Below are positions 1,920 to 57,309 of a stretch of DNA of 64,000 bases, piece after piece. The notes under the pieces were generated by a model, which was given only the letters and a program-made list of their open reading frames with translations, did not search any database and was not told the origin of the DNA. Location of the stretch: NCBI GenBank assembly GCA_000091205.1, contig AP006492.2; one strand, written 5' to 3'. Position 1 is the stretch's first letter; the number at the start of each line of letters is the position of its first letter. The translations under genes and the position numbers were made by a program. The stretch is from Cyanidioschyzon merolae (Eukaryota).

Positions 1920-1984
1920 GCTTTCTGGGTCATCCAGTGCCCTGATCCATACGCTACTAAAAGCCTCTTACTCTTATCTTCCTT

Positions 1985-6957: not shown

Positions 6958-8190
6958 ATTTCAAATAGGATTGCTTCTTTTACGGTCTGTTATAGTCCAG
7001 ACATGAGGAATCGCGACGGAGTGCCTCGACAGCTCGTGACGGGTACACGCTGCCTCCAACAAGGCGAATGCCTTCGTTCTGGTGCCCCGGCCACTGGGCG
7101 ATGGTGGCGTTTGCGTGAGGGCTATCGTCTGCGGCCGTGGCACCGAGTCCGCCGCTTTTGGTAAAGCGCCTGACTCTATGAGTGTCACTTTTGCTCGTCT
7201 CAGTGCGAAGCTGGGACCCCAAAGCAATCGGACTGCAATCGTTAACGACTTTGTTCTGCTTTAGACCGGGGAGCGTCGCTTTACTGTACGCACCGGCATC
7301 CGAGAGAGCCCAGCGGACGCTGGGCGGCTACGTGGTCCACCGAGCCAGGTGCACCCGAAACCAGCAGAACGTGTTTCGCAACCTGACAAACACGCCGCAC
7401 TGCGCCCCCAGCTTTGTTCTGGGAGCAGTTTGCACGCCGTGGTTACGAAGCCCTCTAACGCTGGTGTCGAGCTAGGTGTGGCGTCGGTCACATCGCTTGC
7501 ACTGCCTCACCGTTCCAGTAGAGCGTGCTCCTTCGAGAAGTCTGCCAGCGGAGCGTACCCTCGAACACGCTTTGGAGTGATACGGCTGTGTTTGCCGCTG
7601 CCGCTGCGCTCATGACTCCGAATTATCTGTGCGCACGGCATGGAAAAGATGCAGATGACTGAGTGTCAGTAGGACGCGTAAATGTGTGTTGTGGCTTTTG
7701 GAACTGGGAGGAGTAGTGCGCACTGCTGAACGCTTCCCCGGATGGGGGCAGCAGTCGCGCAAGCATGTCTCCCTGATTAGTGCAAAGGATGCAGCAGTTC
7801 TTGGGAAAGTTGCGTACATCGCAAACACAAATGTAAGCGCAAGTTGCGTCGCCGTTGATGAGTGCAACCGCATCGGGCGCTGACCCGTCTCCTACTGACG
7901 TCGGCGAGGTTCCCGTTGGAGTTATAGATGGCCAGTGCGCAGTTCCCATGCTGGATTTGGCCTGCGAAATCCATGGGAATAACGACAAGCGCTTTACAAC
8001 CGGTGTCAGCGTAGAATCGAATGCTGAACTGCTGGCTCTGTCCGCGCCTCGCGATTATTTTCCGAAATATTTGAAGGTGTACAGCCTCTGCATTGGACAT
8101 GCAGCAATCAGGGCCCATGGATGCTGACGTGGATTAGGATTCGCGGTCATCGTTTCACAGCGGCTCCTTCAACACTTTGCTGCTGGAATT

Positions 8191-8362
8191 CGATACGCGG
8201 TACCGGAATCAAGATGATTACCGATATGGTCCAACAAGGGCGTCCCTGGAATCAACGATCCCGTTACTTAATGGATACGCGGTACCGGAATCAAGATGAT
8301 TATCGATATGGTCCAACAAGGGCGTCCCTGAAAGCATCGATCCCGTTACTTAATGGATACGC
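8191..8362. repeat. 82-bp tandem duplication (about 2.1 units)
   Basis: gatacgcggtaccggaatcaagatgatta[c/t]cgatatggtccaacaagggcgtccctg..cgatcccgttacttaatg is repeated head-to-tail with 3-4 mismatches. Confidence 0.85.
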
Positions 8363-10181
8363 ACAAGCCTGTACGCTTCTCCTCAACGTATGAGTACCAT
8401 GCTCGAATAAAGTATGCTTCAGGTTTTCGATTTCTCTCTCTGTGCGTGTGTGTGTGTGTCAAGGCAACTCGTGAGCGCACCTATTCCGTCCATTGGATTG
8501 CCGACGGGAAAGCGCCGCGACGTCGTCCCTGCACGACTTGCTTACGAGCGCCCGCCCGAAACTCACTACATGCTTCACGTCAATAACCGATTCCATTCGC
8601 AAGACAAATCATGCTTTCGTTCAAACCAACGATGAAACGTCATCCGATGCCAGCACCATCCCTCTTGCGGGATACGCTCCGCGACGCTCCCGACTCTTCT
8701 GCGTGCCCGGCAACGAGTTTCGCGCTCAAAGGGGCGTCATCGCCGCGGCCCCTTCCAGTGGAGCATGCGTCGCAACTTTACACGAAGGAGGCGTACACGG
8801 ACCGGAATTTACCAAGTGGTTCCCCCAGCCTGCATATCCCTCCCGGTACTTGTCTGTTCATGGAGAGCACCGGGCCCCAAAAAGCATCCACCGAGCTGGA
8901 CAGCGTGCGCTTGCGTACACAGCGGACAGCGAACTCGACGAGGTGATCGCCCAGAGCAAGCGCGTCCTCTTCGAACACGGCACCGGGCATGGAATCGGAG
9001 GCGGACCCTTAGGGAAGCCTACCTATAGCGCTCCATCGCATGTGCGGGGCGATGTGTCAGGCCTTGAGGCGCGGTACTCCAGCGCTCTTAGGCGCAAATG
9101 CAGTGTGTCGATGCGAAAACGTGGCCACAGCCAGTTGTCACCGATGCGAATGACGCTCTGTGGCGGTGTACAAACATAGATGAGCGCTGGAAGCGAAGCG
9201 TGGACTGCATCCACCGCCTGCGCATGACATGCGTGGACAACAGCCAGATGCATCGAACTCGAGACTTGAACGCTTATAGGAACGTCCGCCGATCTCCGGC
9301 AACCGAGGTCGACGGACCGGAGAGGCCGGTGTATCTAAAGCCGGCGCCTAGAGAGAAAGACGGCGAAAAAGCAGTCCCAACGCCAGTCGCGAACAGCTGG
9401 CGTTGATGACCCTGGGATGACACTCCTCCGTAGCTTTAGAGTACGCGCTCGTATTCGTGGACTTGTTTCATACTGCTCGGGCATGGATAAAGAGCGCCTA
9501 GCGATCTCATCGACTTCATCGATCCTGAATCAAAACGAAATGCACACGTTCGGCTGCTTCGATCAGCGAGAACGCGTCGTCGCATCACATGGTCGGGACA
9601 TCGCTGCGGCAAAGACCTGCACACGAAAGCGGAACGCCCCAAAGACATCTTCAGAAGCGAATGTCTGTTTTTACGCAGTATGCAACGATCACATGGCGTA
9701 GTGCCAAGCTCCTGGACTTCGTTTCGTACGTGATGAGCGCGTACACCCCAGGAAATCCCGTTTTAACCGCTTGTTTATCTGAACCTATGACCCAGAGTTA
9801 GAGCGAGCAACATGACTGTGCGTGAAAGACTGCAAAAATTTCCCAGATAAAGTACCAGGTTCATGATTGGATTCATTGCCCGCGGGATGATGACACACCC
9901 AGATTTGCCCGAGATCCAATCTCATAGAAAGCGCACTCGCGAGGAACAGGCTCCAGCTACCACCGCCGCAGCACCGCAACATCCAGCACATGACCAGCGC
10001 AAGCGTGTCGCTCGCACAGAGCGTTCGAGCTCGGTTTCACATCCCGAGCTGGCCTACTCGCAAATATGACGCAAGCCGTTCGTCGTGATGTCGTCGGGTG
10101 CTCGAGTCCCTGGGCATCGTGAGTGCTCCAGCATCGTCCAGTATGAATGGCTCGGTCAGCGTGGTCATCGGCGACGAAGCG

Positions 10182-18440: not shown

Positions 18441-19307
18441 TCTCCTGCTACACACCCCAGCAGGTCTCCAGCAAATTGGGTTGGAAGACTAGACGAAGTG
18501 TACGCGGTGCTTTCATTGAGATTTTGCATGTTGCATCTGCGAGACAGGTATTCACTGGAGAGCGCAGTGCAACGAAACCTTGGGTTTCGCCGAAACTCCA
18601 GCGAAGACCGGGTACCATGTTTCGAGAGGACGCCTGGGAGTCCTGTGGTCGCGTGAGCAGGAACAGCTCGCCGGTCTGCTGTTGCTTTCGCAAACGTTTG
18701 GAAAACGGAATCGCGGGTGATCGGAAAGCCATGATTTTGGGCGAAGCAGGTTTTACGAGTTCAGTGCGTCCAGTAATCCAGCCACGGCGGTTGTGAGGAC
18801 CTGCCGCAACCCGCTCTGTTGTGGCAGCTATGACATAGACTTGGTGCCCACACTGTTCAGCAGCGTCTGGTGCATGATCCTGGCCAAAGCTCGCACGTGT
18901 CAGCGTTTCCGCCGAGGGCCATAGACGCTCGTGTCGCCAGCGTTTTCAGAGACAGTGTTCCGAGCGTTCGCGTGGCCTTACCTCGCAACCGAAAGGAAGC
19001 GTTTGTCTCCTAGAGTTCGGAATGCTGTTGTCTAAGGTGCGGCGTTTCAGAGTCAGAACACGGACGCGACGCCGCGGATGTTTCGCTGTCCACTCGGCCG
19101 GCTAGGGCGTTCGACGACGGCTCGGTTGCACGCTTGTTCTGAAGCTCTCTGTTTTTCAGCTGCGAGCTTCTTGGAGTTAGGTATCGCCTGCGAGAAGTGG
19201 TGCTTGCCTGAGGGTTCTTGGATCAGATAGATCGGGGGACGCATGCCGGTGCACTCGATGCAGACGGTGGTATTGAGGCGTTGAGCGCGAGAACGCCCAT
19301 TTTCCCT

Positions 19308-22223: not shown

Positions 22224-22829
22224 TCACCGCCTCGTCTGGAGATGGAGGATGCACTTTAGTATCGAGAATGATGCCGTGCACGCGACCTCGGGTGACACTC
22301 GCGAACGCCGTTCAAAAGTCGAAAGCAGTCGCCAGCGGTTTACAGTAGTGGCGGCGAACGCGCCCAAGACAAAACTTCTCCAACTGACGTGCAGACGCCT
22401 CCCAGCCTTTTTGGACCGGCCGCCTACTAAGGGTTTCAACTTTTTCTCATATAATTCCACCTTGAGAGGTTCTTCCGCGAAATTCTCTCTGGTCAACTCT
22501 GGAGGTCTTCTTTCTATCACCGCGCACCTCCTTACATTGATAGCGGCGTTAAAGTCTTGGTTCACAAACTTCATACGTTTCTTGCTATTGATTGTACTTC
22601 CGGATGCACCTAGTCCAGAAACTTTCGCTTTCCTTCCCATGTGCTCTTCTGTTAGCGCTCCGTACTTTTGTATATCTTCAGGGCTCCTCGGGCACTTTTC
22701 CATCTCCACCCTCTGAAGTGTACATCCCAACTCATCGTGTATAGGCGATTTCCGGAACTCATCGATCGGTATCGTAACGAAACGCCTGCGCACTCCTTGT
22801 ATGTTCTTGTTGACGGCGCTGGTTGACAC
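22224..22829 (-). CDS. Fanzor/TnpB-like nuclease C-terminal segment (RuvC-II, RuvC-III), copy A2
   Basis: Carries the same TIPIDEF and VNQDFNAAINVRR motifs. Its C-terminus reads through into flanking DNA because the stop codon present in copy A1 is absent here. Confidence 0.75.
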   Translation of the reverse strand: MSTSAVNKNIQGVRRRFVTIPIDEFRKSPIHDELGCTLQRVEMEKCPRSPEDIQKYGALTEEHMGRKAKVSGLGASGSTINSKKRMKFVNQDFNAAINVRRCAVIERRPPELTRENFAEEPLKVELYEKKLKPLVGGRSKKAGRRLHVSWRSFVLGAFAATTVNRWRLLSTFERRSRVSPEVACTASFSILKCILHLQTRR

Positions 22830-22894
22830 GCTTTCTGGGTCATCCAGTGCCCTGATCCATACGCTACTAAAAGCCTCTTACTCTTATCTTCCTT

Positions 22895-23962
22895 TCAGGC
22901 GCTCAACTGATTGAAGAAATCCGCGGTCGCCCGCTGCTTCCCACAGTATAGATTAACGCGCAGACGAGCCCACCGGGGCTTGGCGTACTCTTTCCACGGC
23001 GCTTCCCAGTCAGCAACACGGACTTTCGTGAATTTCAGAAAAGTTCGAAAGTCCGCTCCTCGGCTCGTCACCTCGCTCATAGCTTCCAGGTGCTCGTTCG
23101 CTCCTGCATTCCATGTCTCAACTTTCTTCCTTGCATTCATTATGCCCGATTCTCGACAGTATCTTGCTCTCGAGAGCTTGAAAAGACGCATGTCTTTCTG
23201 ACGCAAGTCACCGTCACTGCCATCTTCTGCACGCTTCGGTGCTGCGACGGCTATATTCATCGTGTTTCCGGGGTCCACGCCAACGACAAAGTCACTCTCA
23301 TGCACGTTCTGTGTGGCAGGATCCGCCTCCTTCTCATCTTCATGCTTCGTCACGGGCGAAGCCGAAGGCACGATAGGACGATCCGCCTTCAACCGCCGAC
23401 AGTGTGCACACATGGACACTCCATCGGTTTCGATCGTGCCCGTGAATACCCTCTGCTTGCTCACTTTGCGACGTTTGAAATAGAAGATATTCTTCCAGTA
23501 CGTCTCCCGGCTTTCACCGGTGAACTCCGTCTTCCTTCCATCGAACTGCGGACAGGTCTCCTCCATGACGCCGTAGAGGACTCTGGAGTCGATAATCACA
23601 TAGTGCGACTTGATGCTGCACAGCGGAGCGACGTAGAAGCGCTTACCCAGAAGCGCGGCCTTCTGTCGCTCCGGCTCTTCATTTGCTTTCTGACTCGGCT
23701 CCATCTCCGCCTTGCGCTCGAGTTTTCGGTTCAGGAATCCGAAATAGCGCACAATGGGGCGATAACATCTTTCTTCATCTCTTTTCATATCTGGTACCTT
23801 TTCCGCTCGATTCGCCAGCGCCAAGACTGCACGGTGCTCTTGAATAGCCGCGCGGATTACAGAAGCTTCATTCAGGCACCGGCGTGACGTCTTCTTGTCG
23901 ACAAATTCGATCTCCTGTACGTTCTGGCGATCGTTCGTGATGCCGTCGATGATGGCCCACAT
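22895..23962 (-). CDS. Fanzor/TnpB-like nuclease central segment (RuvC-I), copy A2
   Basis: 355 aa, [17 protein letters not shown], near-identical to 1985-3052. Confidence 0.75.
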
Positions 23963-24162
23963 CGCGCGGCGAGAGAGGCCGGGGGGTCCAGCGCAAACAT
24001 GGCGCGTATCATGAAGCGTTCGAGGTTCACGATCATATCGTTCTTCAGGTGCGTGAGGTGCTTGACTGCCCCGCTGGTGTAAACACGCAAGTCACCCCTG
24101 TATCGAGTAACGTTGAAGCGGTATGCAGCATCATTTTTCATGCCGGGCATCCACTCGCTCAT
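23872..24162 (-). CDS. putative N-terminal segment of Fanzor/TnpB-like protein, copy A2 (frameshifted relative to central segment)
   Basis: Near-identical to the 2983-3252 ORF and overlaps the next frame in the same way. Confidence 0.4.
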
Positions 24163-24946
24163 TTCGCCGCGACGTTTCCCCTATAGCAAGCATGAGGTGA
24201 CGAGTAAAGGTCTTGTAGAAGGCACGTTCCGAAACCTCAGCTGTTTCCAAGTGCGTCACGTCGCGATACATCTCCCTCGTCATATGCATCGGTCCTCAAG
24301 AAGCCTTGCAAACACTCCCGGAGTTCGACTCGGCACGGTTTCTGATGGCATCTCGCAACTTTTCCCCGTGCGGAGCAGTAGTATGCTTAAGAAGACAGGC
24401 TCTCACCACCATCTCGTCGTATCGCCGTCTTTCTTGCAGCCTTTATTGTCGGACCTCCCGCTTTTGCTCCTTCGTCCTCTCCTGTTCTTCTGAACTCGGC
24501 ACCGTTTTTTGTTTTTTCTCTGCCGGCTGTCGACGCTGTGCCCCCAGGATCCTCCATTTCCTTTTCCATGACTTTCCTTTTTTACATATTTGGAAATGAG
24601 ACTTCTTTGACCGCTTCTGCTACAAACCGCGAAAAATCACTTGAAAACAGTTACTTGAGGGTTAGTACACAACTGAGGTGAAGGACTGTACTCTGCTACG
24701 ACTGCAACGCAAATACGACCTGTACGGTAGAGCAACAAGAAAACGATTAGGAAAGATCGCGTTTCCCTTCAACGGCGAGATGCGCGTCCCGTCTCATGCC
24801 CGCCAGGTATCCCGGGTGCGCCTAGAGTGCGCGCCGCGTGCGCCACCGCAAGCGTTACAAATCGAAACACGCGCCGCAGCGCCAACGAACGCGCCATGCT
24901 TCATGCTTAGCGTTTTCGGGGGCTCACGTACTAGACGCCGCACAGT

Positions 24947-26236: not shown

Positions 26237-26999
26237 TGATCAATACCGAGAACCTGGGCATTGCTTCTGCACCCGATTCAGAATACTATAGATCGGATCG
26301 ATGTATCTGGCTCGGGTGTGCACGCTAAAGGTTGGGACTCGTCCTAATGCCATGGACACAAGGCGTTGCGAACTCTTTCTGCGACATCGAGCTCTTGCTC
26401 TACGCTCTCTCCGGCTCTAAAAAACGCCAGTTGCTGCTCCTTATCCAGCTCCGTTGTCACCTATCGGTGCGTGTTGATAGCAACGCCCAAGTCCCGAACT
26501 CGCTGTGTACGAATGTTGTCGATGCATTTGATGTAGAGTCGGCAGTTACGATCTACATGACACTGACTATTTTTCGTCTTTTTTTTTGTATACAGCCCTG
26601 ATGCGCCTTTCGCAGCGGTGACACTCGTTTGTGATCAAGAGTTCCCGAACGTCCACTGTATTTCGTCCTTCGTGCACCGAATTGTGGCACCTAAAAGCTC
26701 GCTGTGTCGCTCGATACATGCACTTCACGGGTACGGAAGGGTTTAGTCAACGTCCTCCTCCGTTTCCACGCCTGGTGACACGCCCTGGGATCCAGGGCTT
26801 CTGCTAGGCGATCCCCTTTGGCAAGTACGCTGCCCACTGCAAGTGCAAGCACATGATGCTCTGCTCGATTGATGATTTTTGGGACTTGGCGTTGTCCACG
26901 ATCAAAAAGGTACCGGGCCCAGAATCCAAGCCGGAGAACAATTCGAGAAACCTCGGTCCATCCGCGCTCCTCTCGAACAAAGCGCTTACACACGCTCCA

Positions 27000-27650
27000 T
27001 CGTAATCTATCGAAAGAACAGAAATCAAAAACTGATTAGCAACAAGATAAGAAATGCTTTCCACCTCTACGATAACCGTTGAAAGGGGAAAGATTTCTGT
27101 AGTTTCGAAAGTTTGGCTTCTAGGCGCAAGGTCATGCGAGCCGGACGAGTCTGCGGGGCTAGCGTTTCATGCTTCCCCCAGCGGCACTCGCTGAGGCGAC
27201 ATCAGATCAGCACATCCGCAACGCCGTTCATTCTGGCATCACAAGTCGTTGGAATGCGTCTGGGCGTCGCCCTGGTCGCAGTGGCTTCCTAGCATTCCGC
27301 TTAGTGTCGCCACAGGCAGTAAGTCGATCTGCGGAGCTTGCAAGCCCCCATAATGATTATGTTACTCGGACCCCGTGTCGAATGAACCACGTCTCGAGTC
27401 GACGCCCTCAGTGTCATGGCAAAGCCGTTCTGTCTCCGTGCTGCATCCGCACGATCAGTATTGAGGCGCTCCTACGGGTGCTCATGGCAAGTTTGGCGCA
27501 CGATGGAACGTACAGAACGACCAGTACATCCGAGAGCAGGTCATGGAACTTGAAGGTGCTGTTCAGCGTGATGGACGCTTTCCCGAATGTCAATTTCCAT
27601 CCCGCAATCTGGGATCCATGGTATATGTACTGAACCTGTAAAACCAAAAA
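27000..27650. repeat. paralogous segment X2, directly upstream of the diverged 1.28-kb repeat partial copy
   Basis: See X1 for the similarity evidence. Confidence 0.5.
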
Positions 27651-27659
27651 GACTGGAAT

Positions 27660-28250
27660 CAGTCGCAACGATGACTCAAACCCGATTCCATGATCTTTCT
27701 ACATGCGAACAGAAGAAATGGGAGCCGCTGGAGACGTATCTCATAAACGGTACCATGGTACTGTCGAATCAAGTTCCTTCAACCACCAAAACCAGAGGAG
27801 GATTTATCTTTCGAGCTGACTCAGTTATTTCAAATAACCACTTTGGTAAAGTTTCTGCGTGAGCTCAAGAAGAGGCCATCAAAGGACGACATCCGATTTC
27901 TTTCCTCGTCTATCCAGGATCGCGTATGGCTTCGCCCACCAGTTGCCTTGAAACAAAAAGGTCGACAAATGAATGAATCCGACATTTGAGCACACTACAC
28001 ATATGGTAAGGAGAAGAACGGAGGCTTGCACGTATGCATTGGATAATATCATTGATTATTTTTCGAAAAACTGTACGAGTCCATCGAGAATCATCTCAAC
28101 TCCACTGACGTAAAGAAATCCATCGGCGACTCGTCGAAGCAGGCACTCTCCGAAATCACAACCGAGAATCCGAAACCCAGGGATGCAATCGAAATCCCGG
28201 ATCGCTGCAACACGCATCTCCATGCTGTACATCTTGCGAACAACTTAGAA
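27660..28250. repeat. diverged partial copy (3' half) of the 1.28-kb repeat
   Basis: About 70-75% nucleotide similarity to 31540-32000 (for example ..gcattggataat.., ..cgagaatcatctcaactccactgacgtaaagaaat..). ORF 27587-27862 ends ..VLSNQVPSTTKTRGGFIFRADSV.., matching the repeat ORF ..VLQSNAVASMTAKRGRFVTTRSV... Confidence 0.55.
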
Positions 28251-28279
28251 TGAATTGAACGATTATACCAGAGCAGCCG

Positions 28280-28915
28280 TTGTGTCCATTTTCTTTTGAT
28301 GTGGGAGATCGCGCAGCGGGCGTTGTCTGTTGTCCAACCAGCGGCTACGAAGCGACGTTTGCGGCTTACGTCTATTGTATCGCTCTGTTCACGACCTCTG
28401 TTTTCCTGGTTGCTCAAATGAGGCCACTTCGGTTTATGACACGTGTGGCCGTGGGTTTAACTGGCGCGCTGGCGCTGGGAGCGGCTGCATCCGTCCTCCA
28501 AGATCCACTTTATCCAACAAGAGTGCTCTACACGCACACAACGAGTTTATCGGGACCGCGCTCGACAGCGGCGCTCATTGGCCGCCTGTATGCAACGTGG
28601 TTGCTGACGTCTGGAAGTGTGCGCATCGTTGCGGCAGTTCGTTACGGCTCCGTGGCGTGTCGTCTGCTAGCTGCACTCACGTACGTCATCGCACTCGCGC
28701 ACTTCTACACGGAGGTGTTCTGGTTCGGTACATTATCGCTGCACCCGGCCGGTCGTTTACCGATCATCGTTGCTAGCTGTTGCCTTGGACTGCTGTTTTT
28801 GGACGCGGTGTCGACAGTGATCCTCCAGATGCGCGGTGGCAAGCACCACCCTGAGAAGAGCGGGCCCGGGCGCGGCACCGCAAGATCCCAAAGGCCAAGA
28901 CGTCTTGATGACTAG
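28280..28915 (+). CDS. hypothetical multi-pass membrane protein (211 aa)
   Basis: Several hydrophobic helices (..YVYCIALFTTSVFLVAQ.., ..VAVGLTGALALGAAASV.., ..LPIIVASCCLGLLFLDAV..). Confidence 0.3.
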   Translation: MCPFSFDVGDRAAGVVCCPTSGYEATFAAYVYCIALFTTSVFLVAQMRPLRFMTRVAVGLTGALALGAAASVLQDPLYPTRVLYTHTTSLSGPRSTAALIGRLYATWLLTSGSVRIVAAVRYGSVACRLLAALTYVIALAHFYTEVFWFGTLSLHPAGRLPIIVASCCLGLLFLDAVSTVILQMRGGKHHPEKSGPGRGTARSQRPRRLDD

Positions 28916-30012: not shown

Positions 30013-30459
30013 CTAACTACCTTCCGTTGTACACGCGGCCTGCTCAGACGCTGTTTCCGATGGGTTTACAGCTGCGTCCGCTAAGAGGTTCGGAATGCCG
30101 TCGGCAATTACATAAAACTCTCCGTGTTCGCAGTGCAACTGGCCGCCTACGACGTGCGTCTCGAGCAACAGTCGCTGAAGAGCATCCAAAAGCGGCAAAC
30201 GGTCTCCGCTTTCGACCGCTTTTTCCAGCGCCGGCAGCTCCGAGGGGCTTGGAGCTGCTTCCGGCAGTGCATCCACACAGTCAGATTCTACAGAGACCGC
30301 TGCTGCTCGTAGCAGCGACCAGTCGAGTCGTGGGATCATGCGCAGCAGAAACCTGGGTTGGTACTCCACTGGGATTATGTCTACAGCGGAAACGTTACGG
30401 ATCGCCAATGGTTTCTTGTGTACGGGACAGATCAACAAGTTATGGGTCAGGAGACGCAT
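30013..30459 (-). CDS. TRM112-like methyltransferase activator subunit
   Basis: N-terminal MRLLTHNLLICPV and C-terminal ..HCEHGEFYVIADGIPNLL.., matching the Trm112 zinc-ribbon-like ends, with an inserted low-complexity middle. Confidence 0.65.
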   Translation of the reverse strand: MRLLTHNLLICPVHKKPLAIRNVSAVDIIPVEYQPRFLLRMIPRLDWSLLRAAAVSVESDCVDALPEAAPSPSELPALEKAVESGDRLPLLDALQRLLLETHVVGGQLHCEHGEFYVIADGIPNLLADAAVNPSETASEQAACTTEGS

Positions 30460-30732
30460 TGATCTCTTAAAAGAAAACGAGTTTCGTGCAAGCGGCCTCT
30501 GAAGCTGCGACTCGTTCGTTTTGTAAAGTTCGCTGCGGTCGTCCGGGCCGAAAACGCCGAGCGACTGTACGAATGTCTTTACGATGAACGCGTTATGTGC
30601 TAAGTTCGTGCTTTTGCTGACAGCGACCGCGCAACCGGGGGTTTGCAGTCAGATAAAACGTGCTTTTATCATTAAAAAGCATTTACTTGCCAGTGGGCGC
30701 TATGCGGTCCTTAAGCGCCGAAGGCAGCGATA

Positions 30733-32010
30733 TCAGAATATCATAGAACCGGTCTATACAGCCACCATAAGCATGTACACTCTGAAGTTTGCATCGTTTT
30801 CAGTGGCCACCAACGCCCGGGCCTTGGCGAGCTTTTTCCGCGACTGGTTCCTGTTCCTCTAGCTGATTTCCGGCTAGAAATACGCAGGTCTCTCCTTGTT
30901 ATCCCGCCCAGTTGTAGGCAATCGAAGGATGCTGAAGGCAGTGCTCCCGTCCATATCTCGTTGCTTCTCGGTGTTGTCAATACATCTAACAGAGAGACAG
31001 TGGTTGCGATCTGGGCATCGCTTGTCATCTCCATGTTCGATGAACGCTGCCTCGAGGCGCACTTGCAGCGGTGACAGTTGACTGTGGTCAGATGCTCCCG
31101 TATGCTCAGCAGGCCTCCTCGTGGTCAGCAGATCGCCGCCCTGTGGCGCATGAGGGCTAGCACCAGCGCCCGGTACTTGCCATTGACGGGTGCAGGAGGC
31201 TTTGTATTTGCTGGCCTCCGCCGCTTCCGTGCCCGATGCAGTGCCCTAGCATCACGTGCTTCTTCAGGGCAATCCATTTGACAAGTACTGTGACTTGTTT
31301 TACAAGCAAGCGCACGCACTTTCATTCGATAAATGATTTTTGGGGCGCCAGCTTACCCGCGATGCAGCGAGCACCGAAACGAAAATCCAGATTTCAAACC
31401 GAGTCCAGCGATTCCGATCCCTCTACGCTCCCTTTGTGGAAAGCGGTGACGCGAGCTCCAAAAAAAGATGTTGCTGCGATGATGGAAATTCGAGCCCAAG
31501 ACGATTTCCTGCTAGAGCTGCGTCGGAAGCCTCTGGACGCACGTTCCGCGAGAGATGTGGTGCTGCAGTCGAATGCAGTTGCATCCATGACTGCAAAGCG
31601 AGGAAGATTTGTCACGACAAGATCGGTGAATCTTCGGCATGAGCTTATGCGGAAGTTGTCAAGCGACGACGCTGAGCTTTTTGTTGTCAATCCAGCGGCT
31701 CGACATGCTGTGCCCAAGAGTTGCCTTGAACCAGACGGATTGAATACTTGAAGAATGCATAGTTTTAGCACACTACGCATAAGAAAACGATAATCTAGGA
31801 GGTTTCTACTTTTGCATCGGATAATGCAATGGGTTAATTTACGAGCCCTTGCTCGAGTGCGTCGCGAATCATCTTGACACCGGTGACGTAACGAATGCCA
31901 GCGGCAGACAGTCGAGGGCGCCACTCCGAAAACACGACCGAGAACCCTAAATCGACTAGTGAACCCCTGCATCCTTTTTGCTGCGTTTGGAATGTCGAGC
32001 TGTATATCTA
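30733..32010. repeat. 1.28-kb interspersed repeat, copy R-A
   Basis: Near-identical to 55181-56470; the ORF-track proteins in the two copies are identical or near-identical. Boundaries are set where the flanks become unrelated. Confidence 0.8.
31362..31751 (+). CDS. hypothetical small basic protein (~129 aa, MQRAPKRKSRFQ...) encoded by the 1.28-kb repeat
   Basis: The ORF is conserved between copies with 3 substitutions and an in-frame 3-nt indel (A7 versus A11 run: APKKD versus AQKKKD), suggesting coding constraint. The N-terminus is lysine/arginine-rich and NLS-like. I recognise no domain. Confidence 0.45.
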   Translation: MQRAPKRKSRFQTESSDSDPSTLPLWKAVTRAPKKDVAAMMEIRAQDDFLLELRRKPLDARSARDVVLQSNAVASMTAKRGRFVTTRSVNLRHELMRKLSSDDAELFVVNPAARHAVPKSCLEPDGLNT

Positions 32011-33168
32011 TCGAAAATTTTTCGTAAACAATCGCGTGGCAGATACAACGCGAGCAGTTCAGCATTCAGTTTTGTTCGAACATGGGTAATGCGCTCTACG
32101 CCCGTCGGAGCGTGCACACCAGCTCTGAGTCATGCTTGGAATCCTGCCAGACACGAGACTGTCCTCTAGAATTTTACACCTGTTGTCGTTGTTCGCCATG
32201 TTTGATGGTGGACGCTAACTAGCACCGCTCGGGAGGCGTGTCGCCATTGCGAGCGCACCCGCGTCCTGCAGGGCTTTCCGCGCGCGCTCCGTAAACGCCA
32301 TCTCAGCAGGATTTGTGTGCGTTCAGCGAGACCTCGGGATTCGCACCGCTTCCGAACGGGTAATCGCAAGGCGCTTCTATTGGTGAGAAATGTCGCGACC
32401 TTCGCATGGTGAGGCGCTTTTTTCGGCGAAGAGAACCAGCATCCGGCGTGTATGTACACCGCACCAGTCGGGTGAACACATCAGGCGTTAAAGAAAAGCT
32501 TTGGTCATTGTATATTTCCTCAGTATGCTGCATCACAGAGCAGTATCCCTGAGGTCAACGTATGATGACACTTTGTCTACGTGCTTTCACGGAACACGGT
32601 CTGATCCGCATGCATTGGCGCCTCGCTCGGGATCATCGTTTCGTACTGTATAGAGCCCAGGCGTCTACGAAAATTTAAGCGTGATATCTTCCAGCCCCGC
32701 ACCTAGAGCTGAATAAGGGCACAAAACAATGCTGCTGCTCGCAAAAGCGATCATGGTGGCTCCCAGGACTGCCCCCTTGCTGCCATGAATACGTCGTCAC
32801 TGCATTGGTTGACAAATCGGAGTCATCGAGTGCAGCTGCGGCGATCGCCCGGAGCTGAAAGGGAGAATACATCAACAGCATTGCGATGTCCAGCGAAAGC
32901 GAATCTCACTCCACCCGGGAATGGAAACAAGTCAGCCCATAACGTGTCAGCACCTGTTATTTATCGAGCTCGGCTGTTTCGTAGACGTCCATGCGCGTGG
33001 GGTCTCGTTCTCGATGCGTTCGCGGTGCTCGCCAGGCCGGCGAGTGCGTATGCGCCCCGCTCCCGCCCCTCTGCTGGAAAAGAAGAGCATGCCAACCGCT
33101 GCCCATGGCTTTACGACGAAATGCGCTGTGCTATGCGTCGGATGGGGTGCCCGCTCGCTGGGCGCTGC

Positions 33169-34101: not shown

Positions 34102-34499
34102 GTGCGCGCACGCGTACGCCTCCTCCGACGTACACGCTCAGACACGCTCATATACGCAGGTCATTCCGTATTCTGGGCGCTGTGCAGTGCGCTACCGGGC
34201 GCATCAGCATCAGCGTCGTCGTCAGCGGCGGCGGCGGCGGGGGGATCGGGAGCTGGGCAAACATCGCCGTCGATGCGTGCTCGCCAGCGCCATCTACCAT
34301 GCGCGTGTCGGATCGATGATTAGCGTTTGTCACCTGAGCTGTGTTCCACCTCCGGGAGCATGTACGCAAATGGCTTTTCGCGTTGTATAGCAAAAATGTT
34401 CGATATTCGTTCATTTTGACGAGACAAAAATCCAACGGAAACGTATGGACATGGTCGTCGGCGATCCTGGAGGCCTGTCATCACCGGCTACCTGAAAGA

Positions 34500-34885
34500 G
34501 AAACGTAAAAACCCTCTTCTCGTTGAACATCGAGCGAATGAAGAGCAGGTTTCGATGAGGAAGAAGAGCGGATATAGGCGAGAGAGAGCGTTTAGCCTGC
34601 GGGAAGATGACGAGACTTTAGTGCCACAGAGTGCGCGAGTTCTTGGAATCCTCGCATTGATGCGCCTTACTAGAGGCAATACACGCGTTGAGTTTGTGAA
34701 TCGAGACTTTCATGCTGCTACCTGTATCAGATGATGTTTGGTGCTGGAGACGAAATCCGAGGCGCTGGGGCGAGCCAACTTCGTGAAATAGTCTCGCAGG
34801 GTCGAAGTATCGAAGGAGAAGCTGAAATCCATAGCGGGCGGCCGGTCCAAGAAGGCTGGGAGGCGACTGCAGGTGTGGTATTCAT
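34500..34885 (+). pseudogene. degenerate 3'-terminal fragment of a Fanzor-A-like gene (RuvC-II remnant through C-terminus), opposite orientation to the full copies
   Basis: Plus-strand translations align with the copy A1 C-terminus across frame breaks: ..LNIERM.. (compare IPIDEF), ..RVEFVNRDFHAA.. (RuvC-III) and ..EKLKSIAGGRSKKAGRRLQV.. (compare KKLKPLVGGRSKKTGRRLHV). It has internal stops and is about 70-75% identical at the nucleotide level. Confidence 0.6.
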
Positions 34886-47707: not shown

Positions 47708-49854
47708 AGTTCCGCAGTCTTAGGCAGCGCCTTGTCGCGGAATGTGCAAGCAACGTATATTCAGCACTGCTTTAGACTCGATTGCATCTACTTGCACACG
47801 AGCAGTAAACCCCGAAGAAACGCATGCGCTGTTGTGTCGAAGCACGTTGCCATAGCGTCCGTTTGGTCAGCGCTCCAAAATTGCTGTATTTTCATTCGCC
47901 TACGCCACAATGGCGGTAGCACTGCTTATCATGGTACTGGACACTACCGGCTGCAGCTGCGGTTTGGCGGGAGTCGTGTATGGGTCGCGGCGGGCCTGGG
48001 TACCGTCCGAGCGCTCTGGCGTTGCCGGCCGCTTTCCTTGACAGACGTAGGGGTAGCGCTTGGATGCAATCAACTCGTTTCATGTTCCGGAGGCAGCCAT
48101 GTATCGCTTTCGCCTGAGCGAAGACGGATGAGCGGTATGCGTGGGAAGCCTTGCTCGTTTCGCTCGATAGTGGACCTGTGTGCGAAATCGACAGCTAGCG
48201 TACGGAATGTGTGTGTGTTTGCTTTTGTGGCGGGCGGGGTTATTCAATAGCTTCTTTGCATGCAAGCTTGTATCCTTGTCTCCGGCGTTTGATCATTGTT
48301 GACTTGCCTGTCCGCTTTTCTGCAAGCATTCAAAGCGTCGGCAGCGGCGGATAACCCGCTGCCTAAAGAGACTCGATCGGCCTATCCTGGGGCCTGCTAT
48401 CTGCACTGCACCGATGATGGGTACTCGGCTCGGCATGGCGTCGGGATCACCTGCACCAGGATGCTTCCTGATTGGGGCAGTTCGGGGCCCCATTTTACGA
48501 CAGCGACACCGTAAAGTTTCCATACGCATGTCAGTCTGAAATGGAACGGTTCCGCTCAGTCAACACAGGAGCATTCGCTCAAGTTCGTGCCTCTTCGTAT
48601 TGCGATCTACACGAGCCTCTGCGAATTTTCATTTGACTGCTTCATTTCCAACTGTCTTGTCTCCGGCTTTCAATAAGAGAGTCTCTTCTGTCTCTGCAGA
48701 TCCGCGACAGGCAGTCCAAGCATGTTGACAGCAGCGTTAAAGTCCGGATTTCACTGCTTCCTGCTGTTGTGGACGAATTCCATGCACAGGCAAAAGCGGC
48801 GATCTATGCTTCGCTTGCCCCGTTCATCTCCTGCGGATGCAGTCTCGATGCGTTTTTCGCAGCGATCACATTTGGCAGTGGTGAGATATCACCTCCTCGG
48901 CTGAGCGCTGTCCTGTGAAGCGTGATCGCGGGCTTGATCGCTCACTGTATGCCCTTGATGACTAGAAAAGGCTCCCGTCGACCCCCACTTGTGTTTCCCG
49001 CCCCATACCGTACCCAAAAACCAAGCGCGGCATGAGGACGATCCCCTGAGCGAGTTCTATGTTCGCTGCGCGCGCTGTGTCATTCGATCGAGGAATTTTG
49101 AGACTATGAAACTTTCCATGATGAAAACTATGGTCAGAAGAACCAGGTTTAAGAGCAAGTTGAGGGATTCGATCCGCCGACGCGCTTCTCGTGCTAAACG
49201 ATGGCGTACTCTTCACCGAAAACCATCGCTACGACAAGCAAGGTCCGAGTCCAGGGATATTTTCCATGCAACTGTAAGAGACAGGGGTCTCTGCGAGCGT
49301 ATCGTCTCAGAGACGTCATGCTAGAGTCTAGAGCCATCTTGTCCATGGCCACGAAGAGAGAAGGATTCGTCATTGGAACGGAATTGGATATTCGACGTGT
49401 CAAGTTCAGCAAACAATTGGCATGAGCTATTGAAGAGGTCTTCAAACTACGATGTTGTGTTTTGGTTGGTCGCCAATCCAGAAGCGCGAATGGCTGTGCT
49501 GACGTGTTGCTTTGAAACATAATGATTGAAAGTTTGAACCTTGCATGATTTGGGGATGCTGCTCTTACGGAAAGGATAAGCGTGCAGACTTGTTGGTATG
49601 CATTACATATTGATAGAGGTTCTTCTACGAGACCTTGTTCTAGGGCACCGCGAATCATGCTGAAGACCATTCCATAAAAAGTTCTAGTGGTAAGGCGTCG
49701 AAGGAGTAACTTTCGAAAGACGCATGAGAATCCAGGGACCGTCTATGGATCTGGAAGCCCGCATCGCTGCATTTCGAATATCGAGACTGAACATCTGAAA
49801 CTTCGAAAAAATCGCAAGGTAGGAATATATAAACCAGGTCAGTGTTCCATTTGC

Positions 49855-51210
49855 AACTATAGACGGTGACTATAACGGAAAACGTTCTACGGTCATGGAG
49901 GATAAACTGGTATCCCTTCACGGGCACCCCGCACCAGCCTTTTCTTGACCGGCCACCTGCCATCGTTTTTAGTTTCTCCTTGCACACGTCGAGCCGGAGC
50001 GCGTGCTCTGTGAAGTTGGATCGCGTCAGCTACGCAGGCCTCTCTTTCAGCACTGCACATTTTTCTGACACTGAGGGCGGCGTTGAAGTCACGGTTCACG
50101 AGCTCCATGTGATTATCGACAATGATGGAAGTCGTCAGTGCAAGTATTGCCAGAACTTTTCCCCTCTGTGCCGTATGCTGCTCTGTCAGAACCCCGTTCC
50201 TTTCTATCGCCGAAGCGCTCCGTTGCGTTTTCCATCTCAACCTTTTGATTCTTTATTTTTGAAAATGAACGTATTTTTATGCCCTGTTTGAGGACCTTGT
50301 TGGAGGGATTAGAACTTTCGGAAGGAAGACGAAAGATGCACTGGTTTTACCGTGTGCTGAACGCTTCAGCGATTCGCCCAGTACAGCGATCAATTCTTTT
50401 CAGGATTGCAAAGACACCTGCAATGGAGTTCAACCACGGAGCGTGCTGCGGCATGAAAAGCAGCTCTACGCGGTAGAATCGAAAAAAGCTCGAACTCAAC
50501 GGGAATAGTCAAATGCCACGTTGTCCAGTAGGAGGATATCGCCACCGGTCTGGGGAGACCCTTCAATGATTCGACAAAGTGGGTGCTGTTTTATGATCCT
50601 TGTCTCAAGCGAAACTGAGGCCGCCAAATCATTCCACTGCAGCTAGAAAAGATGATGATGTCCTCGTTCTCTTCTACATCGATTGTACCCACAACTTGCT
50701 CCCTGCTCGGCGAATACTCATGTACGCTCCGACCGTTTCGTCGGATGCAAGTCTCATCGACTCAAAGAACAGACCGACGTCGCCGTGCTCCCTACAGATC
50801 GCCGAGTTCCAGAAAGTTTTTCATGGGTGCCGTTTCGGTGGAAGATGGCCGTGCGTGAACTAGAAGTTTTATTGGGACTGTCTCCCAGTGTTTCCCGGAC
50901 AACACGAACAAACTTTAGAGAAACAGAGCTGCTCGTAGTTGCAACAATCGTCGCTTTTGCTTTCCTTTTGGTGATCAACGAGTCGTTTTCTACCATTGAT
51001 CGCAAGCACGCTTTGAGAATACCAGTTTTGACGCAGAGCGCATCCACTTGTTTCTTTCAGTGTTCTGCAACCATCTGAGTACTGTGGTATGATTGATCTG
51101 GACGAGGAATGCAGTCCTCGTTGCACTGTTCAGTAAAGAATATACCGTATTGGCAATTCGTCTACGACCTATACAGTACCTTGCATATTGATGTCGATCT
51201 CCTGGTATAT
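49855..51210 (-). mobile_element. degenerate chimeric element B2: Fanzor 3' module plus Y segment
   Basis: Collinear homology with 17090-18440 across both the Fanzor-derived part and the Y part. The conserved GGCCGGTCAAGAAAAGG core lies at about 49940-49960 on the minus strand. Confidence 0.55.
49893..50240 (-). pseudogene. truncated Fanzor/TnpB-like ORF retaining Zn-finger-like region and RuvC-III (VNRDFNAALSVRKM), lacking RuvC-I/II
   Basis: The ORF-track protein aligns with the copy A1 C-terminal segment (..YGALTEEHMGRKAKVSG.. to NGVLTEQHTAQRGKVLA.., VNQDFNAAINI to VNRDFNAALSV). The homologous upstream sequence is replaced by segment Y. Confidence 0.6.
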
Positions 51211-55180: not shown

Positions 55181-56470
55181 TGCATCCATGCCAGAATATC
55201 ATAGAACCGGTCTATACAGCCACCATAAGCATGTACACTCTGAAGTTTGCATCGTTTTCAGTGGTCACCAACGCCCGGGCCTTGGCGAGCTTTTTCCGCG
55301 ACTGGTTCCTGTTCCTCTAGCTGATTTCCGGCTTGGAATACGCAGGTCTCTCCTTGTTATCCCGCCCAGTTGTAGGCAATCGAAGGATGCTGAAGGCAGT
55401 GTTCCCGTCCATATCTCGTTGCTTCTCGGTGTTGTCAATACATCTAACAGAGAGAAAGTGGTTGCGATCTGGGCATCGCTTGTCATCTCCATGTTCGATG
55501 AACGCTGCCTCGAGGCGCACTTGCAGCGGTGACAGTTGACTGTGGTCAGATGCTCCCGTATGCTCAGCAGGCCTCCTCGTGGTCAGCAGATCGCCGCCCT
55601 GTGGCGCATGAGGGCTAGCACCAGCGCCCGGTACTTGCCATTGACGGGTGCAGGAGGCTTTGTATTTGCTGGCCTCCGCCGCTTCCGTGCCCGATGCAGT
55701 GCCCTAGCATCACGTGCTTCTTCAGGGCAATCCATTTGACAAGTACTGTGACTTGTTTTACAAGCAAGCGCACGCACTTTCATTCGATAAATGATTTTTG
55801 GGGCGCTATCTTACCCGCGATGCAGCGAGCACCGAAACGAAAATCCAGATTTCAAACCGAGTCCAGCAATTTCGATCCCTCTACGCTCCCTTTGTGGAAA
55901 GCGGTGACGCGAGCTCAAAAAAAAAAAGATGTTGCTGCGATGATGGAAATTCGAGCCCAAGACGATTTCCTGCTAGAGCTGCGTCGGAAGCCTCTGGACG
56001 CACGTTCCGCGAGAGATGTGGTGCTGCAGTCGAATGCAGTTGCATCCATGACTGCAAAGCGAGGAAGATTTGTCACGACAAGATCGGTGAATCTTCGGCA
56101 TGAGCTTATGCGGAAGTTGTCAAGCGACGACGCTGAGCTTTTTGTTGTCAATCCAGCGGCTCGACATGCTGTGCCCAAGAGTTGCCTTGAACCAGACGGA
56201 TTGAATACTTGAAGAATGCATAGTTTTAGCACACTACGCATAAGAAAACGATAAGCTAGGAGGTTTCTACGTTTGCATTGGATAATGCAATGGGTTAATT
56301 TACGAGCCCTTGCTCGAGTGCGTCGCGAATCATCCTGACACCGGTGACGTAACGAATGCCAGCGGCAGACAGTCGAGGGCGCCACTCCGAAAACACGACC
56401 GAGAACCCTAAATCGACTAGTGAACCCCTGCATCCTTTTTGCTGCGTTTGGAATGTCAGGACGATATCTC
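55181..56470. repeat. 1.28-kb interspersed repeat, copy R-B
   Basis: Near-identical to 30733-32010. It lies immediately upstream of the DUF21-CBS gene. Confidence 0.8.
55820..56212 (+). CDS. hypothetical small basic protein, second copy
   Basis: Paralog of 31362-31751, differing by the in-frame indel. Confidence 0.45.
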   Translation: MQRAPKRKSRFQTESSNFDPSTLPLWKAVTRAQKKKDVAAMMEIRAQDDFLLELRRKPLDARSARDVVLQSNAVASMTAKRGRFVTTRSVNLRHELMRKLSSDDAELFVVNPAARHAVPKSCLEPDGLNT

Positions 56471-57309
56471 GAAAACAAAATCAGAAAGTAATCGCTGCGC
56501 ACACACGAAACAAGGCGTTCCGTGCTCCACGGGCTCATCGGATACGGACGGCAGGCATCCGCAGACGCGCGCGACCGTCTGCGTCTCCTGAGAGACGCGC
56601 ACGCGCATCAATGCAATGCCCTCTGCGAAGCTGCCCGCGAAACGCACTATCCAGGGCGGCAGCGATGATGCTTGCGCGCCGGGCAACATCACCGCCGCCG
56701 CCGCCGGCATGCGTGCGCCCTCCCAGGCGCGCACCTACACGTGAAATCAGGTCAGGCGCACTGCATCGACGCTGGACGACGACGTCACCCGCTTGCCCGC
56801 ATTCGAGCCGTGCGTGCGTGCGTGCTTGCGTGCATGCGTGCTTGTTTGCGTGCGTGCTCGCCTGCACCACTATTCTTGTTGGTGTGAGCGATTTCGGAGC
56901 TTTCTGCTCTAGAAGAGTGGAAAGCACGCCGCCCAAGTGCGAGCGGTGGTTCATCCTGGTGTGTAACGGTGCCGAAAGCGTGTACCGGACCTCCATGGGA
57001 GCGTTTCGGGGCTGGGCGTTGTCGGTGTCGTCACGCCGCAGTGCCTGTGTGCTGGCGGAGCCGCTGGCCTTTGGTGTGGCGCTTCAAGGGCGACGCTTTG
57101 GCGCACACTGCGTACCACGTTTTGGGCGTCGTGGGGGCACTGTGCGAAATAGACAGCACACGCAACCGAGGCGGAGGTGTCGGCGTAACGAGCGTCTGCC
57201 GAAGGTCTGTTGTCTCTTGACGAGGAATCGGAAGCGCTGTGGCGACTTGCCGGTGAAAAGCGCCGCTACGTGCCGCACGAGAGCGCTTCGGCTAGAACTG
57301 TTGCTTCGT

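Follow-up and report, generated by a model that had tools for sequence, protein, structure and literature searches.

The closest described relatives of the repeat family analysed here are the mariner-type Fanzor1 elements, PUl-1, PUl-2 and PUl-4 of Pythium ultimum and PGv-1 of the Phaeocystis globosa virus (Bao & Jurka 2013, PMC3627910). These are 3.4–3.8 kb in length, bounded by terminal inverted repeats (TIRs) and reported with TA flanks, and in them a transposase gene is followed by a Fanzor1 gene in the same orientation. Among red algae only CMe-1A had been listed: this Fanzor1 repeat of Cyanidioschyzon merolae, also named TE-N2_CMe and also described as a '253-copy, 3.2-kb WSV486-like element' (Nozaki 2007, PMC1955436), has a full 734-aa Fanzor1 and lacks both TIRs and a transposase.

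The present family, which is also from a red alga, shares with the mariner-type Fanzor1 elements the bounding TIRs, the probable TA flanks, and the order and common orientation of transposase and Fanzor1 sequences. It differs from them in retaining no more of Fanzor than its last ~115 residues, in a transposase without the C-terminal ~60 profile positions, in its length of 1.36–1.4 kb, and in that all of its copies are dead; its TIR sequence also differs from that of PUl-1. With IS630/Tc1/mariner transposons it has in common a size of 1.3–1.4 kb, short TIRs, a single long frame, an N-terminal helix-turn-helix (HTH), matches to DDE_3 and IS630 models, and a probable TA target; it is set apart from these by the foreign, Fanzor-derived C-terminal segment and by a third catalytic residue that is not recoverable. 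Like CMe-1A it is old, decayed and interspersed in the same genome and ends in a Fanzor1-type C-terminus. We consider it likely that the family consists of decayed copies of a Tc1/mariner–IS630 transposon with a Fanzor tail, formed as a deletion derivative, that two of its copies have been made near-identical by gene conversion, and that a small open reading frame (ORF) on the opposite strand is a by-product.

The window—the whole 64,000-nucleotide stretch of C. merolae DNA that was analysed—contains five full units of about 1.36 kb (A–E), and a sixth lies ~3 kb past the window end. Their limits were set from family alignments, nhmmer matches and the terminal strings, and are as follows, the strand being that of the transposase sense:

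30725..32086, minus strand: copy A, a full relic from TIR to TIR, 1362 bp, with 'ta' after its right end
55183..56549, minus strand: copy B, a full relic from TIR to TIR, 1367 bp
26270..28307, minus strand: copy C, old and split by a later transposon insertion (nhmmer 26276-27005 and 27660-28323)
27013..27644, minus strand: TE-N2_CMe/CMe-1A 5'-end element within copy C
7997..9489, plus strand: copy D, old and inverted, with TA at both ends
48523..49870, minus strand: copy E, old and full-length, with TA at both ends

Every pairwise relation among A–E is significant in single-sequence nhmmer comparisons (E values of 1e-23 to 1e-88), and these relations are not due to chance. A preliminary description of this DNA had recognised A and B and a third, partial copy at 27660-28250. 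The third is real (69% identity between 31712-31951 and 27934-28175 with blastn), but it is merely the right half of the full-length copy C, which is split by an insertion of ~630 bp. In this insertion blastn aligns positions 16-636 of the CMe-1A consensus with 27629-27013 at 79% identity; the match covers 27013-27629, and extrapolation by the 15 consensus bases left unaligned puts the end of the insertion at 27644. The two full-length old copies D and E are additional to those described earlier; in D a stretch of 82 nt is duplicated in tandem at 8192-8355. A 228-aa ORF in D (8493-9179) and a 158-aa ORF in E were considered as candidate genes and set aside: they have no Pfam match and are not common to the copies.

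Beyond the window, at least seven further paralogous loci are present in Cyanidioschyzon-like metagenome contigs, recovered with a DNA pattern; a search for related loci with the consensus protein matched 108 stretches, none of which was confirmed. Sixteen more diverged copies were seen as ORF products in an exhaustive HMMER search. The copies are dispersed and lie in both orientations, and the divergence between old copies is uniform along the unit at ~0.43 per site, or ~43% in pairwise comparison.

TIR remnants are found in all five copies of the window, and in the consensus the two repeats, CACCCATGTCAGAATAAAATGGAAC and CACCCGTGTCAGATGAAAATGGAAC, are 25 nt long and match at 22 of 25 positions. 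In copy A their strings were located as follows:

32062..32086, no strand: right TIR, which is the 5' TIR in the sense orientation
30725..30749, no strand: left TIR, partly degenerate

The dinucleotide TA lies directly next to D and E on either side, next to A on the right and next to several metagenome copies, as would fit a TA target-site duplication; many other ends are CA, TG or CG, and it is ambiguous at which base the TIR begins. Of the possibilities that the preliminary description had raised, that of a small mobile element proves right in kind, given the TIRs, the transposase remnants described below and the scattering of copies in either orientation.

Single copies are too decayed for protein homology, since tblastn with the PUl-1 transposase and Fanzor proteins against the raw window finds nothing significant on the family; the domain matches were obtained at the consensus level only, with a 5-copy consensus and then a 12-lineage consensus. 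The 5-copy consensus has one minus-strand frame in which the whole element is read with 5 stops in 417 codons, and in the 12-lineage consensus the best minus-strand frame has 3 stops, against 7–14 in the other five frames. Individual copies have 6–10 stops, compared with 17±4 in shuffled sequence. Mapped back onto copy A, the parts of the consensus protein occupy these positions:

31270..32007, minus strand: IS630/Tc1-mariner transposase remnant (consensus matches to NF033545 and DDE_3)
~31918, minus strand: HTH of the transposase
~31555, minus strand: first catalytic D (DE)
~31357, minus strand: second catalytic D (DN)
~31284, minus strand: YSP motif
30864..31202, minus strand: Fanzor/TnpB C-terminal remnant (PF07282, and BLASTP to the PUl-1 Fanzor1), with a TT-xx-CxxC...CxxC zinc ribbon and an RD-x-NAA-x-N RuvC-III motif, mutated in A itself

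The transposase assignment strengthened as lineages were added. The match to the IS630 transposase model (NCBIfam NF033545) improved from an E value of 2.7e-9 to 1.6e-12, at which it covers profile positions 20-238 of 299 in the 12-lineage consensus, with a score of 47.5 bits that is far under the curated (equivalog) cut-off of 100; the score against Pfam DDE_3 (PF13358) rose from 24.4 to 28.9 bits (threshold 28.6, E 1.2e-6), barely over the threshold because of decay. With BLASTP the consensus matches the mariner transposase of PUl-1 (E 4e-4) and, co-linearly, the C-terminus of its Fanzor1 (E 2e-5). Of the catalytic residues, the first two D (in AIDETAF and IMDN, respectively) align to the PUl-1 transposase, and the YSP motif is present; the third acidic catalytic residue was not recovered, which may reflect a deletion junction or decay. 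Membership of the PIF/Harbinger group was considered and rejected: HTH_Tnp_4 matches the minus-strand ORF only at E 0.05–0.1 (13 bits against a threshold of 27), and the consensus matches DDE_3/IS630, not DDE_Tnp_4. Searches of PDB sequences with both consensus proteins and a profile gave only spurious weak matches (KMT5A, tropomyosin). The weak resemblance to bacterial transposases in a published report (E 0.071 to 6e-7) is as expected from an IS630-like relic; that report describes no TIRs, Fanzor tail or family structure, and the copies concerned, compared by description, may be some of the present family.

Downstream of the IS630 transposase the consensus reads HLTTAKCHRCEG...RLCMKCVDNSRKQRNRDLNAAINIL, that is, a [TS][TS]-xx-C4 zinc ribbon and then RD(x)NAA(x)N (RuvC-III), in agreement with the motif [TS][TS]-xx-C4-x(5,50)-RD published for the mariner-type Fanzor1 elements. 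The two consensus sequences score 27.8 and 26.9 bits against Pfam TNB (PF07282; threshold 26.3), the TnpB family model NF040570 is matched over its positions 340-388 of 389 (E 0.011), and BLASTP aligns the tail with the resident CMe-1 Fanzor1 at the homologous RuvC-III position (E 0.005). No other part of the CMe-1 or PUl-1 Fanzor aligns; RuvC-I, RuvC-II and the WED/REC N-terminal half are absent. On sequence evidence this module represents a piece of a Fanzor and not an entire gene. The statement in the preliminary description that the repeat is unrelated to the Fanzor elements needs to be divided. It stands at the DNA level with respect to CMe-1A: sensitive blastn with the published 3169-bp consensus (PMC3627910, supplement 2) places CMe-1A at 1437-4563, 22306-24824 and 27013-27629, together with several fragments, and gives no match to A–E apart from the insertion in C, so that the family is not a part of that element. 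It does not stand for the family as such, which has its own Fanzor/TnpB C-terminal module. A general link of the family with adjacent CMe-1A fragments was also rejected, being seen only beside copy E.

How a transposase and the end of a Fanzor came to lie between one pair of TIRs can be read in two ways. Probably, the family descends by internal deletion from a composite 'Mariner transposase + Fanzor1' element, as a non-autonomous derivative. Alternatively, the element would have been autonomous, with a single ORF of ~415–440 aa from TIR to TIR encoding a functional IS630/mariner transposase fused to a Fanzor-derived zinc-ribbon tail; we know of no description of such a fusion between an IS630/mariner DDE transposase and a Fanzor1/TnpB zinc-ribbon C-terminus, and regard this as unlikely. 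In its favour, the 5-copy consensus reads the whole element in one frame, and, as in compact Tc1/mariner/IS630 elements, the ORF takes up the whole length between the TIRs; the same junction is common to all of the lineages (at least 12), the ORF product of another copy (P0065) crosses the transposase–Fanzor junction in one ORF, and no longer parent was found. However, an in-frame junction has a one in three chance of arising anyway, and both consensus sequences have stop codons at the junction. Moreover, the Fanzor part is the last third of a RuvC nuclease, with RuvC-III but without RuvC-I and RuvC-II, and looks like a truncation rather than a domain, the transposase match ends at position 238 of the 299 in the IS630 profile with no third acidic residue recovered, and composite Mariner+Fanzor1 parents are documented elsewhere (PMC3627910).

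We thus favour a deletion derivative. The copies would be ancient, inactive relics of a class II (cut-and-paste) transposon of ~1.36–1.4 kb, with its sense strand on the minus strand in A, B, C and E. The order in the reconstructed ancestor is a 25-nt TIR, an N-terminal HTH, a DDE-type transposase (AIDETAF, IMDNxxxQKS, YSP), the Fanzor tail and the other TIR. This tail corresponds to the final ~115 residues of a Fanzor1/TnpB-type protein and includes a GIxGxxSxPVKG stretch, the C4 zinc ribbon and RDLNAAINI as the RuvC-III motif. Such an element probably arose by internal deletion of a composite Mariner+Fanzor1 element and would have been amplified to dozens of copies by transposase supplied in trans, after which all copies decayed to their present divergence. 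Because the search found no full-length parent in which one pair of TIRs encloses both a transposase and a complete Fanzor, the deletion is a step that we infer.

The family represents a second Fanzor-linked transposon lineage in the famously transposon-poor genome of C. merolae, associated, like those of oomycetes and algal viruses, with a mariner/IS630 transposase, and a data point on Fanzor genes travelling with cut-and-paste transposons. It also illustrates that a consensus built from a handful of relics that are 55–60% identical recovers an element identity missed by single-copy searches. The result changes no major open question; we see only a slight chance that the locus is instead a compact autonomous transposon with a hybrid DDE transposase–Fanzor tail or, as a lesser variant, that its antisense ORF is a young de novo gene.

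That ORF, on the plus strand of A and B, was noted in the preliminary description, which took it to encode a conserved small basic protein and to be a multi-copy gene or the cargo of a mobile element:

31362..31751, plus strand: 129-aa ORF in A, antisense to ('shadow' of) the transposase core, by mapped coordinates; stops in other copies
55820..56212, plus strand: 130-aa ORF in B, by ORF comparison

As had been described, three substitutions and an indel in an A-run, which adds or removes AAA without shifting the frame, separate the two versions; all three substitutions are non-synonymous (D>N, S>F, P>Q). A role as a real gene, either of a multi-copy family or as a young de novo antisense gene kept in two copies by gene conversion, might be argued from its being unbroken in A and B as well as in five out of six complete metagenome orthologues, from 16 diverged relatives in a library of 1.84 billion proteins (exhaustive HMMER) in which the same frame is open for 80–235 codons, often from the same Met start, and from a plus frame that is open for up to 250 codons in the 12-lineage consensus. 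We nevertheless hold this to be very improbable. Stops and frameshifts break the ORF in C, D and E, and in the orthologous strain L002 its A-run carries a frameshift; among A, B and L001, read by hand, there are 5 non-synonymous differences, 1 synonymous difference and one indel, which is no signature of purifying selection. In the old copies the differences per site by codon phase are 0.41/0.44/0.44, as in the flanks, with no codon periodicity; since the third codon positions of both strands coincide in this antisense register, the codon-phase test cannot tell which strand coded, and it shows only that the copies have diverged neutrally. Divergence between strains within the element (1.1–1.6%) is not below that outside.

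Nor do searches lend the protein a family of its own. The 129-aa sequence has no match in Pfam, a word-indexed protein search returned only the orthologous fragment P0001, and the significant family matches are on the opposite strand. All 16 relatives lie antisense in other decayed copies of this transposon and vary in where they end, as DNA-level homology combined with a stop-poor antisense register would yield. In C. merolae 10D, whose proteins are matched exactly by the neighbouring ORFs, no protein is annotated at the ORF, the element being flanked by BAM80286 and BAM80287, and the collection holds no identical sequence. There is no orphan gene for a conserved small basic protein here, and this false lead can be removed; the ORF is best read as a by-product: it occupies the frame antisense to the catalytic core of the transposase, which is poor in stops, and in the A/B lineage it was lengthened by a 25-nt deletion.

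A non-coding function, in which the family would be conserved as RNA or DNA (a lncRNA or omega-RNA-like gene, or a regulatory module), could be thought to fit its intergenic location and a Fanzor 3' end that could once have overlapped a guide-RNA scaffold, yet it appears exceedingly improbable: Rfam gave no match at gathering thresholds, no tRNAs were present, divergence along the unit is uniform at the level given above, and the RNAalifold consensus of eight lineages reaches only -6.25 kcal/mol, its covariation term being +0.78, a result to which decay may have contributed by erasing structure.

The near-identity of A and B has a different extent from the element itself:

30734..31996, no strand: near-identical tract of copy A, read as a gene-conversion tract common to B
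55192..56457, no strand: near-identical tract of copy B, by identity to the A tract

By alignment and blastn the tracts are 98.66% identical over 1266 columns, with 14 substitutions and one 3-nt indel, and similarity is lost abruptly on both sides, so the earlier account of two near-identical copies with sharp limits was accurate. Its interpretation of those limits as element termini or duplication breakpoints was not, as the A tract starts part-way through the left TIR and, on the right, leaves out the last ~90 nt of the element. The flanks of A and B are indeed unrelated beyond the element ends, but next to the tract (~9 nt on the left and ~90 nt on the right) they are diverged family sequence that aligns to the other copies and keeps TIR remnants. 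The last 76 nt within the tract are 100% identical between A and B, compared with 57% for the adjoining 76 nt outside.

Because the tract sits within older, diverged element ends, we read it as the product of ectopic (non-allelic) gene conversion between old relics and not as a fresh insertion; C. merolae is known for efficient homologous recombination. As in other cases of ectopic (interlocus) conversion between dispersed repeats, a tract of near-identity (~1.3 kb) lies in diverged paralogues on one chromosome, and both flanks are kept; here the mechanism is deduced from sequence only. Long after the family had decayed, 1263 bp would have been copied from one relic to another 24.5 kb away, giving both the near-identical pair and its 'sharp' borders within the old element, and a clean example of such an exchange between ancient transposon relics.

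Recent transposition, or an ordinary segmental duplication of the 1.26-kb unit, would also produce sharp borders between unrelated flanking genes, and the left border is precisely where two metagenome contigs, L001 and L002, are broken, as happens in assembly at the ends of repeats. We judge this improbable, as a newly transposed copy would have identical TIRs, whereas the tract leaves out the termini of the element, and these left-out ends are old and diverged between A and B yet family-homologous. A segmental duplication landing in register exactly within an existing paralogue would effectively be a conversion event. Only two loci of the A/B type occur in the metagenomes, each orthologous to A or to B. 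Conversion thus remains our reading of the pair, whose divergence (1.3%) exceeds that between strains in the flanks (0.4–1.1%). Mixed A/B alleles are visible in metagenome contigs L002 and L041.

Five full-length units of one repeat family (copies A to E) were recognized in the window by sensitive blastn, tblastx, a five-way alignment and single-sequence nhmmer, the last of which links the units in every direction with E-values of 1e-23 to 1e-88. Each runs from one terminal inverted repeat (TIR) to the other, and the old copies differ pairwise at about 0.43 of sites, evenly along the whole unit. The preliminary description had reported two near-identical copies and a third, partial one. The first two are confirmed as copies A and B, in which a tract at 30734-31996 and 55192-56457 is 98.66% identical over 1266 columns, with 14 substitutions and one 3-nt indel; the third is real but is merely the right half of full-length copy C. 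Three neighbouring genes match C. merolae 10D proteins exactly, and no annotated protein lies between BAM80286 and BAM80287, the site of copy A.

Repeat copies, open reading frames (ORFs) and neighbouring genes in the window
1437-4563, minus: CMe-1A copy (Fanzor1 repeat; ~83% identity to published consensus)
7997-9489, inverted: copy D, TIR to TIR
16947-17486: CMe-1A fragment (~83% identity)
22306-24824, minus: CMe-1A copy (~83% identity)
26270-28307: copy C, TIR to TIR, interrupted by a TE-N2_CMe element
30013-30459, minus: Trm112 (BAM80286)
30725-32086: copy A, TIR to TIR
31362-31751, plus: ORF in copy A, 129 aa
33169-34101, minus: DGAT2 (BAM80287)
34361-34874: CMe-1A fragment (~83% identity)
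48523-49870: copy E, TIR to TIR
50013-50248: CMe-1A fragment (~83% identity)
53092-54867, plus: COG8 (BAM80295)
55183-56549: copy B, TIR to TIR
55820-56212, plus: ORF in copy B, 130 aa

Copy D carries an 82-nt tandem duplication (8192-8355, 95% identical) and, at ~8440-8470, a short CA/GA-rich microsatellite insertion missing in the other copies. A mechanical 885-aa ORF (56356-59013, plus strand) begins within the right end of copy B; its exact sequence is missing from the protein collection, and the downstream gene itself probably starts further on.

A DNA pattern built on conserved family blocks, which matches each of the five window copies and no sequence among 100 shuffles, retrieved 39 loci from JGI metagenomes. 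Among these and five further loci, 26 have family members, which group into 12 lineages; five of the lineages are the window loci, and at least seven are additional paralogous loci. A sixth full-length copy (contig L005, 16-1328) lies ~3.1-4.4 kb past the window's right end, and six copies in ~68 kb suggest local clustering, by local hopping or by retention in this region, in what is otherwise described as a transposon-poor genome. Six contigs (L008, L018, L022, L030, L039 and L042) represent one paralogous locus with an extra internal deletion, ~820 bp in total, that keeps family positions ~8-246 and 833-1387; the family thus gave rise to still shorter derivatives.

In the five-copy profile consensus one minus-strand frame of 417 codons contains only 5 stops, and single copies projected onto this sense frame have 6-10 stops, as compared with 17±4 in shuffled sequence. 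Its C-terminal segment matches Pfam PF07282 (Cas12f1-like TNB, the TnpB/Fanzor zinc ribbon plus RuvC-III) at 27.8 bits (threshold 26.3, E 2.8e-6), and the whole frame scores 24.4 bits with DDE_3 and E 2.7e-9 with the NCBIfam IS630 transposase model. With the 12-lineage consensus DDE_3 rises to 28.9 bits (threshold 28.6) and IS630 to E 1.6e-12 across profile positions 20-238 of 299, the gain that a true ancestral signal should give; TNB scores 26.9 bits (threshold 26.3), and the last 49 positions of the TnpB family model are matched with E 0.011. The motifs follow in the order APSTLCRW (HTH), AIDETAF (first D), IMDNxxxQKS (second D) and YSP, and then GIEGEPSVPVKG..., HLTTAKCHRCEG...RLCMKC and RDLNAAINIL, this last group being the published Fanzor/TnpB motif [TS][TS]-xx-C4-x(5,50)-RD (PMC3627910). 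A third catalytic residue of the transposase is not recovered in the consensus. By BLASTP the consensus is co-linear with PUl-1, a Pythium Mariner+Fanzor1 composite whose sequence is given in the supplement of that paper (transposase E 4e-4, Fanzor1 C-terminus E 2e-5), and aligns with the resident CMe-1 Fanzor1 at the RuvC-III position (E 0.005). At its ends the element has 25-nt inverted repeats that agree at 22 of 25 consensus positions; TA adjoins D and E on both sides and A on the right, the remaining ends being ambiguous. This makes the family a Tc1/mariner-IS630-type DNA transposon with only the tail of a Fanzor1 gene.

The transposase-Fanzor junction is common to all lineages, and composite Mariner+Fanzor1 elements are known as parents (PMC3627910). 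The most economical reading is that the element would be an internal-deletion, non-autonomous derivative of such a composite, which would have amplified and then decayed; the deletion step is one that we infer, no full-length parent having been found. That the ancestor instead carried a single TIR-to-TIR ORF encoding a functional transposase-zinc-ribbon fusion seems to us improbable.

The preliminary description had proposed that the plus-strand ORF encodes a conserved protein. As it noted, the ORFs of A and B differ by three substitutions and an in-frame AAA indel in an A-run; all three substitutions are non-synonymous. The ORF lies antisense to the transposase core, with the first D near 31555 and the second near 31357 as mapped on the sense frame. 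In C, D and E it is interrupted by stops or frameshifts, and in the ortholog L002 it is frameshifted in the A-run; a 25-nt deletion peculiar to the A/B lineage fuses two ancestral frames. Differences among A, B and L001, read by hand, comprise five non-synonymous, one synonymous and one indel; the old copies show no codon periodicity, and between-strain divergence of the element equals or exceeds that of its flanks. There are no Pfam matches, and HMMER, run exhaustively over 1.84 billion representatives, gives 19 matches: one orthologue, two repetitive proteins and sixteen others, all sixteen falling, like the ORF, on one plus-strand frame of the family consensus. These sixteen (34-48% identity, variable ends) are antisense ORFs of other decayed copies; such matches are to be expected from DNA-level homology in an intrinsically stop-poor antisense register. 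In this register the two strands share their third codon positions, from which we infer that an antisense stop can arise only where the sense strand has the dicodon NNY-TAN or NNT-CAN. The recurrent Met derives from conserved hydrophobic codons immediately ahead of the second catalytic D. Judged by these comparisons, the 129-aa plus-strand ORF is most probably not a gene; of the two earlier suggestions, multi-copy gene or small mobile element, the second survives, as a mobile-element relic.

The A/B tract does not share the bounds of the element: it starts 9 nt inside the left TIR and stops ~90 nt before the right end. Outside it the ends of A and B align to the family, keep TIR remnants and are diverged like any two old copies, identity falling from 100% over the tract's final 76 nt to 57% over the 76 nt that follow (shuffled 49±2.5%). 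Fresh transposition would have left identical termini, and a segmental duplication would not have come to lie, in register, within a paralogue already there. Ectopic gene conversion is the simplest mechanism, in which the tract of one old relic would have been copied into another 24.5 kb away in direct orientation. All A/B-type metagenome sequences are orthologues of locus A or B, except one chimeric contig, and the contig breaks of L001 and L002 coincide exactly with the tract border. Divergence between A and B (1.3%) exceeds strain divergence in flanking DNA (0.4-1.1%), so the event is older than the split of these strains; B-type alleles at some A-orthologue positions suggest continued exchange or assembly mixing. 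In the chimeric contig, L009 (Ga0209012_1010752), the shared tract connects the right-hand flank of A with the left-hand flank of B; the contig is an assembly chimera or else a genuine deletion/recombinant between the direct repeats. Overall the repeat is unexceptional, and two points about it are of modest interest: this clear tract of probable ectopic gene conversion, and a second Fanzor-linked transposon lineage in the C. merolae genome.

C. merolae is reportedly transposon-poor: Nozaki et al. 2007 (PMC1955436) list a 3.2-kb element with 253 copies, 26 class I elements and eight of class II, the latter 'related to bacterial transposases'. Bao & Jurka (PMC3627910) later assigned the 3.2-kb element to Fanzor1 as CMe-1A, from which TE-N2_CMe derives, and they give no other Fanzor family for this species. 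The eight class II elements may be among the present relics, and we found no description of the family in the literature on Cyanidioschyzon and mariner. It is of the same kind as the Mariner-type Fanzor1-associated transposons, of which it is a decayed and probably truncated derivative. An earlier view that the repeat is unrelated to Fanzor elements fails on its Fanzor1 tail, although blastn with the published consensus finds no DNA similarity to CMe-1A.

The TE-N2_CMe element interrupting copy C (27013-27644, reverse orientation) corresponds to the 5' 635 bp of CMe-1A, consensus positions 16-636 matching 27629-27013 at 79% identity, and the family is thus older than that insertion. At 3992-6269 of metagenome locus L027, a CMe-1A copy (consensus positions 1486-3163) directly adjoins a truncated family copy, making this the second instance of a CMe-1A insertion in or beside the family. 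Weaker Fanzor-like matches found by tblastn with the CMe-1 protein (202-782 and 44018-44877, plus strand) suggest further, more diverged Fanzor relics. A repeat pair of ~860 bp (17590-18450 and 50344-51207, 77-82% identity), adjoined on both sites by CMe-1A 3' fragments, may represent a diverged Fanzor subfamily.
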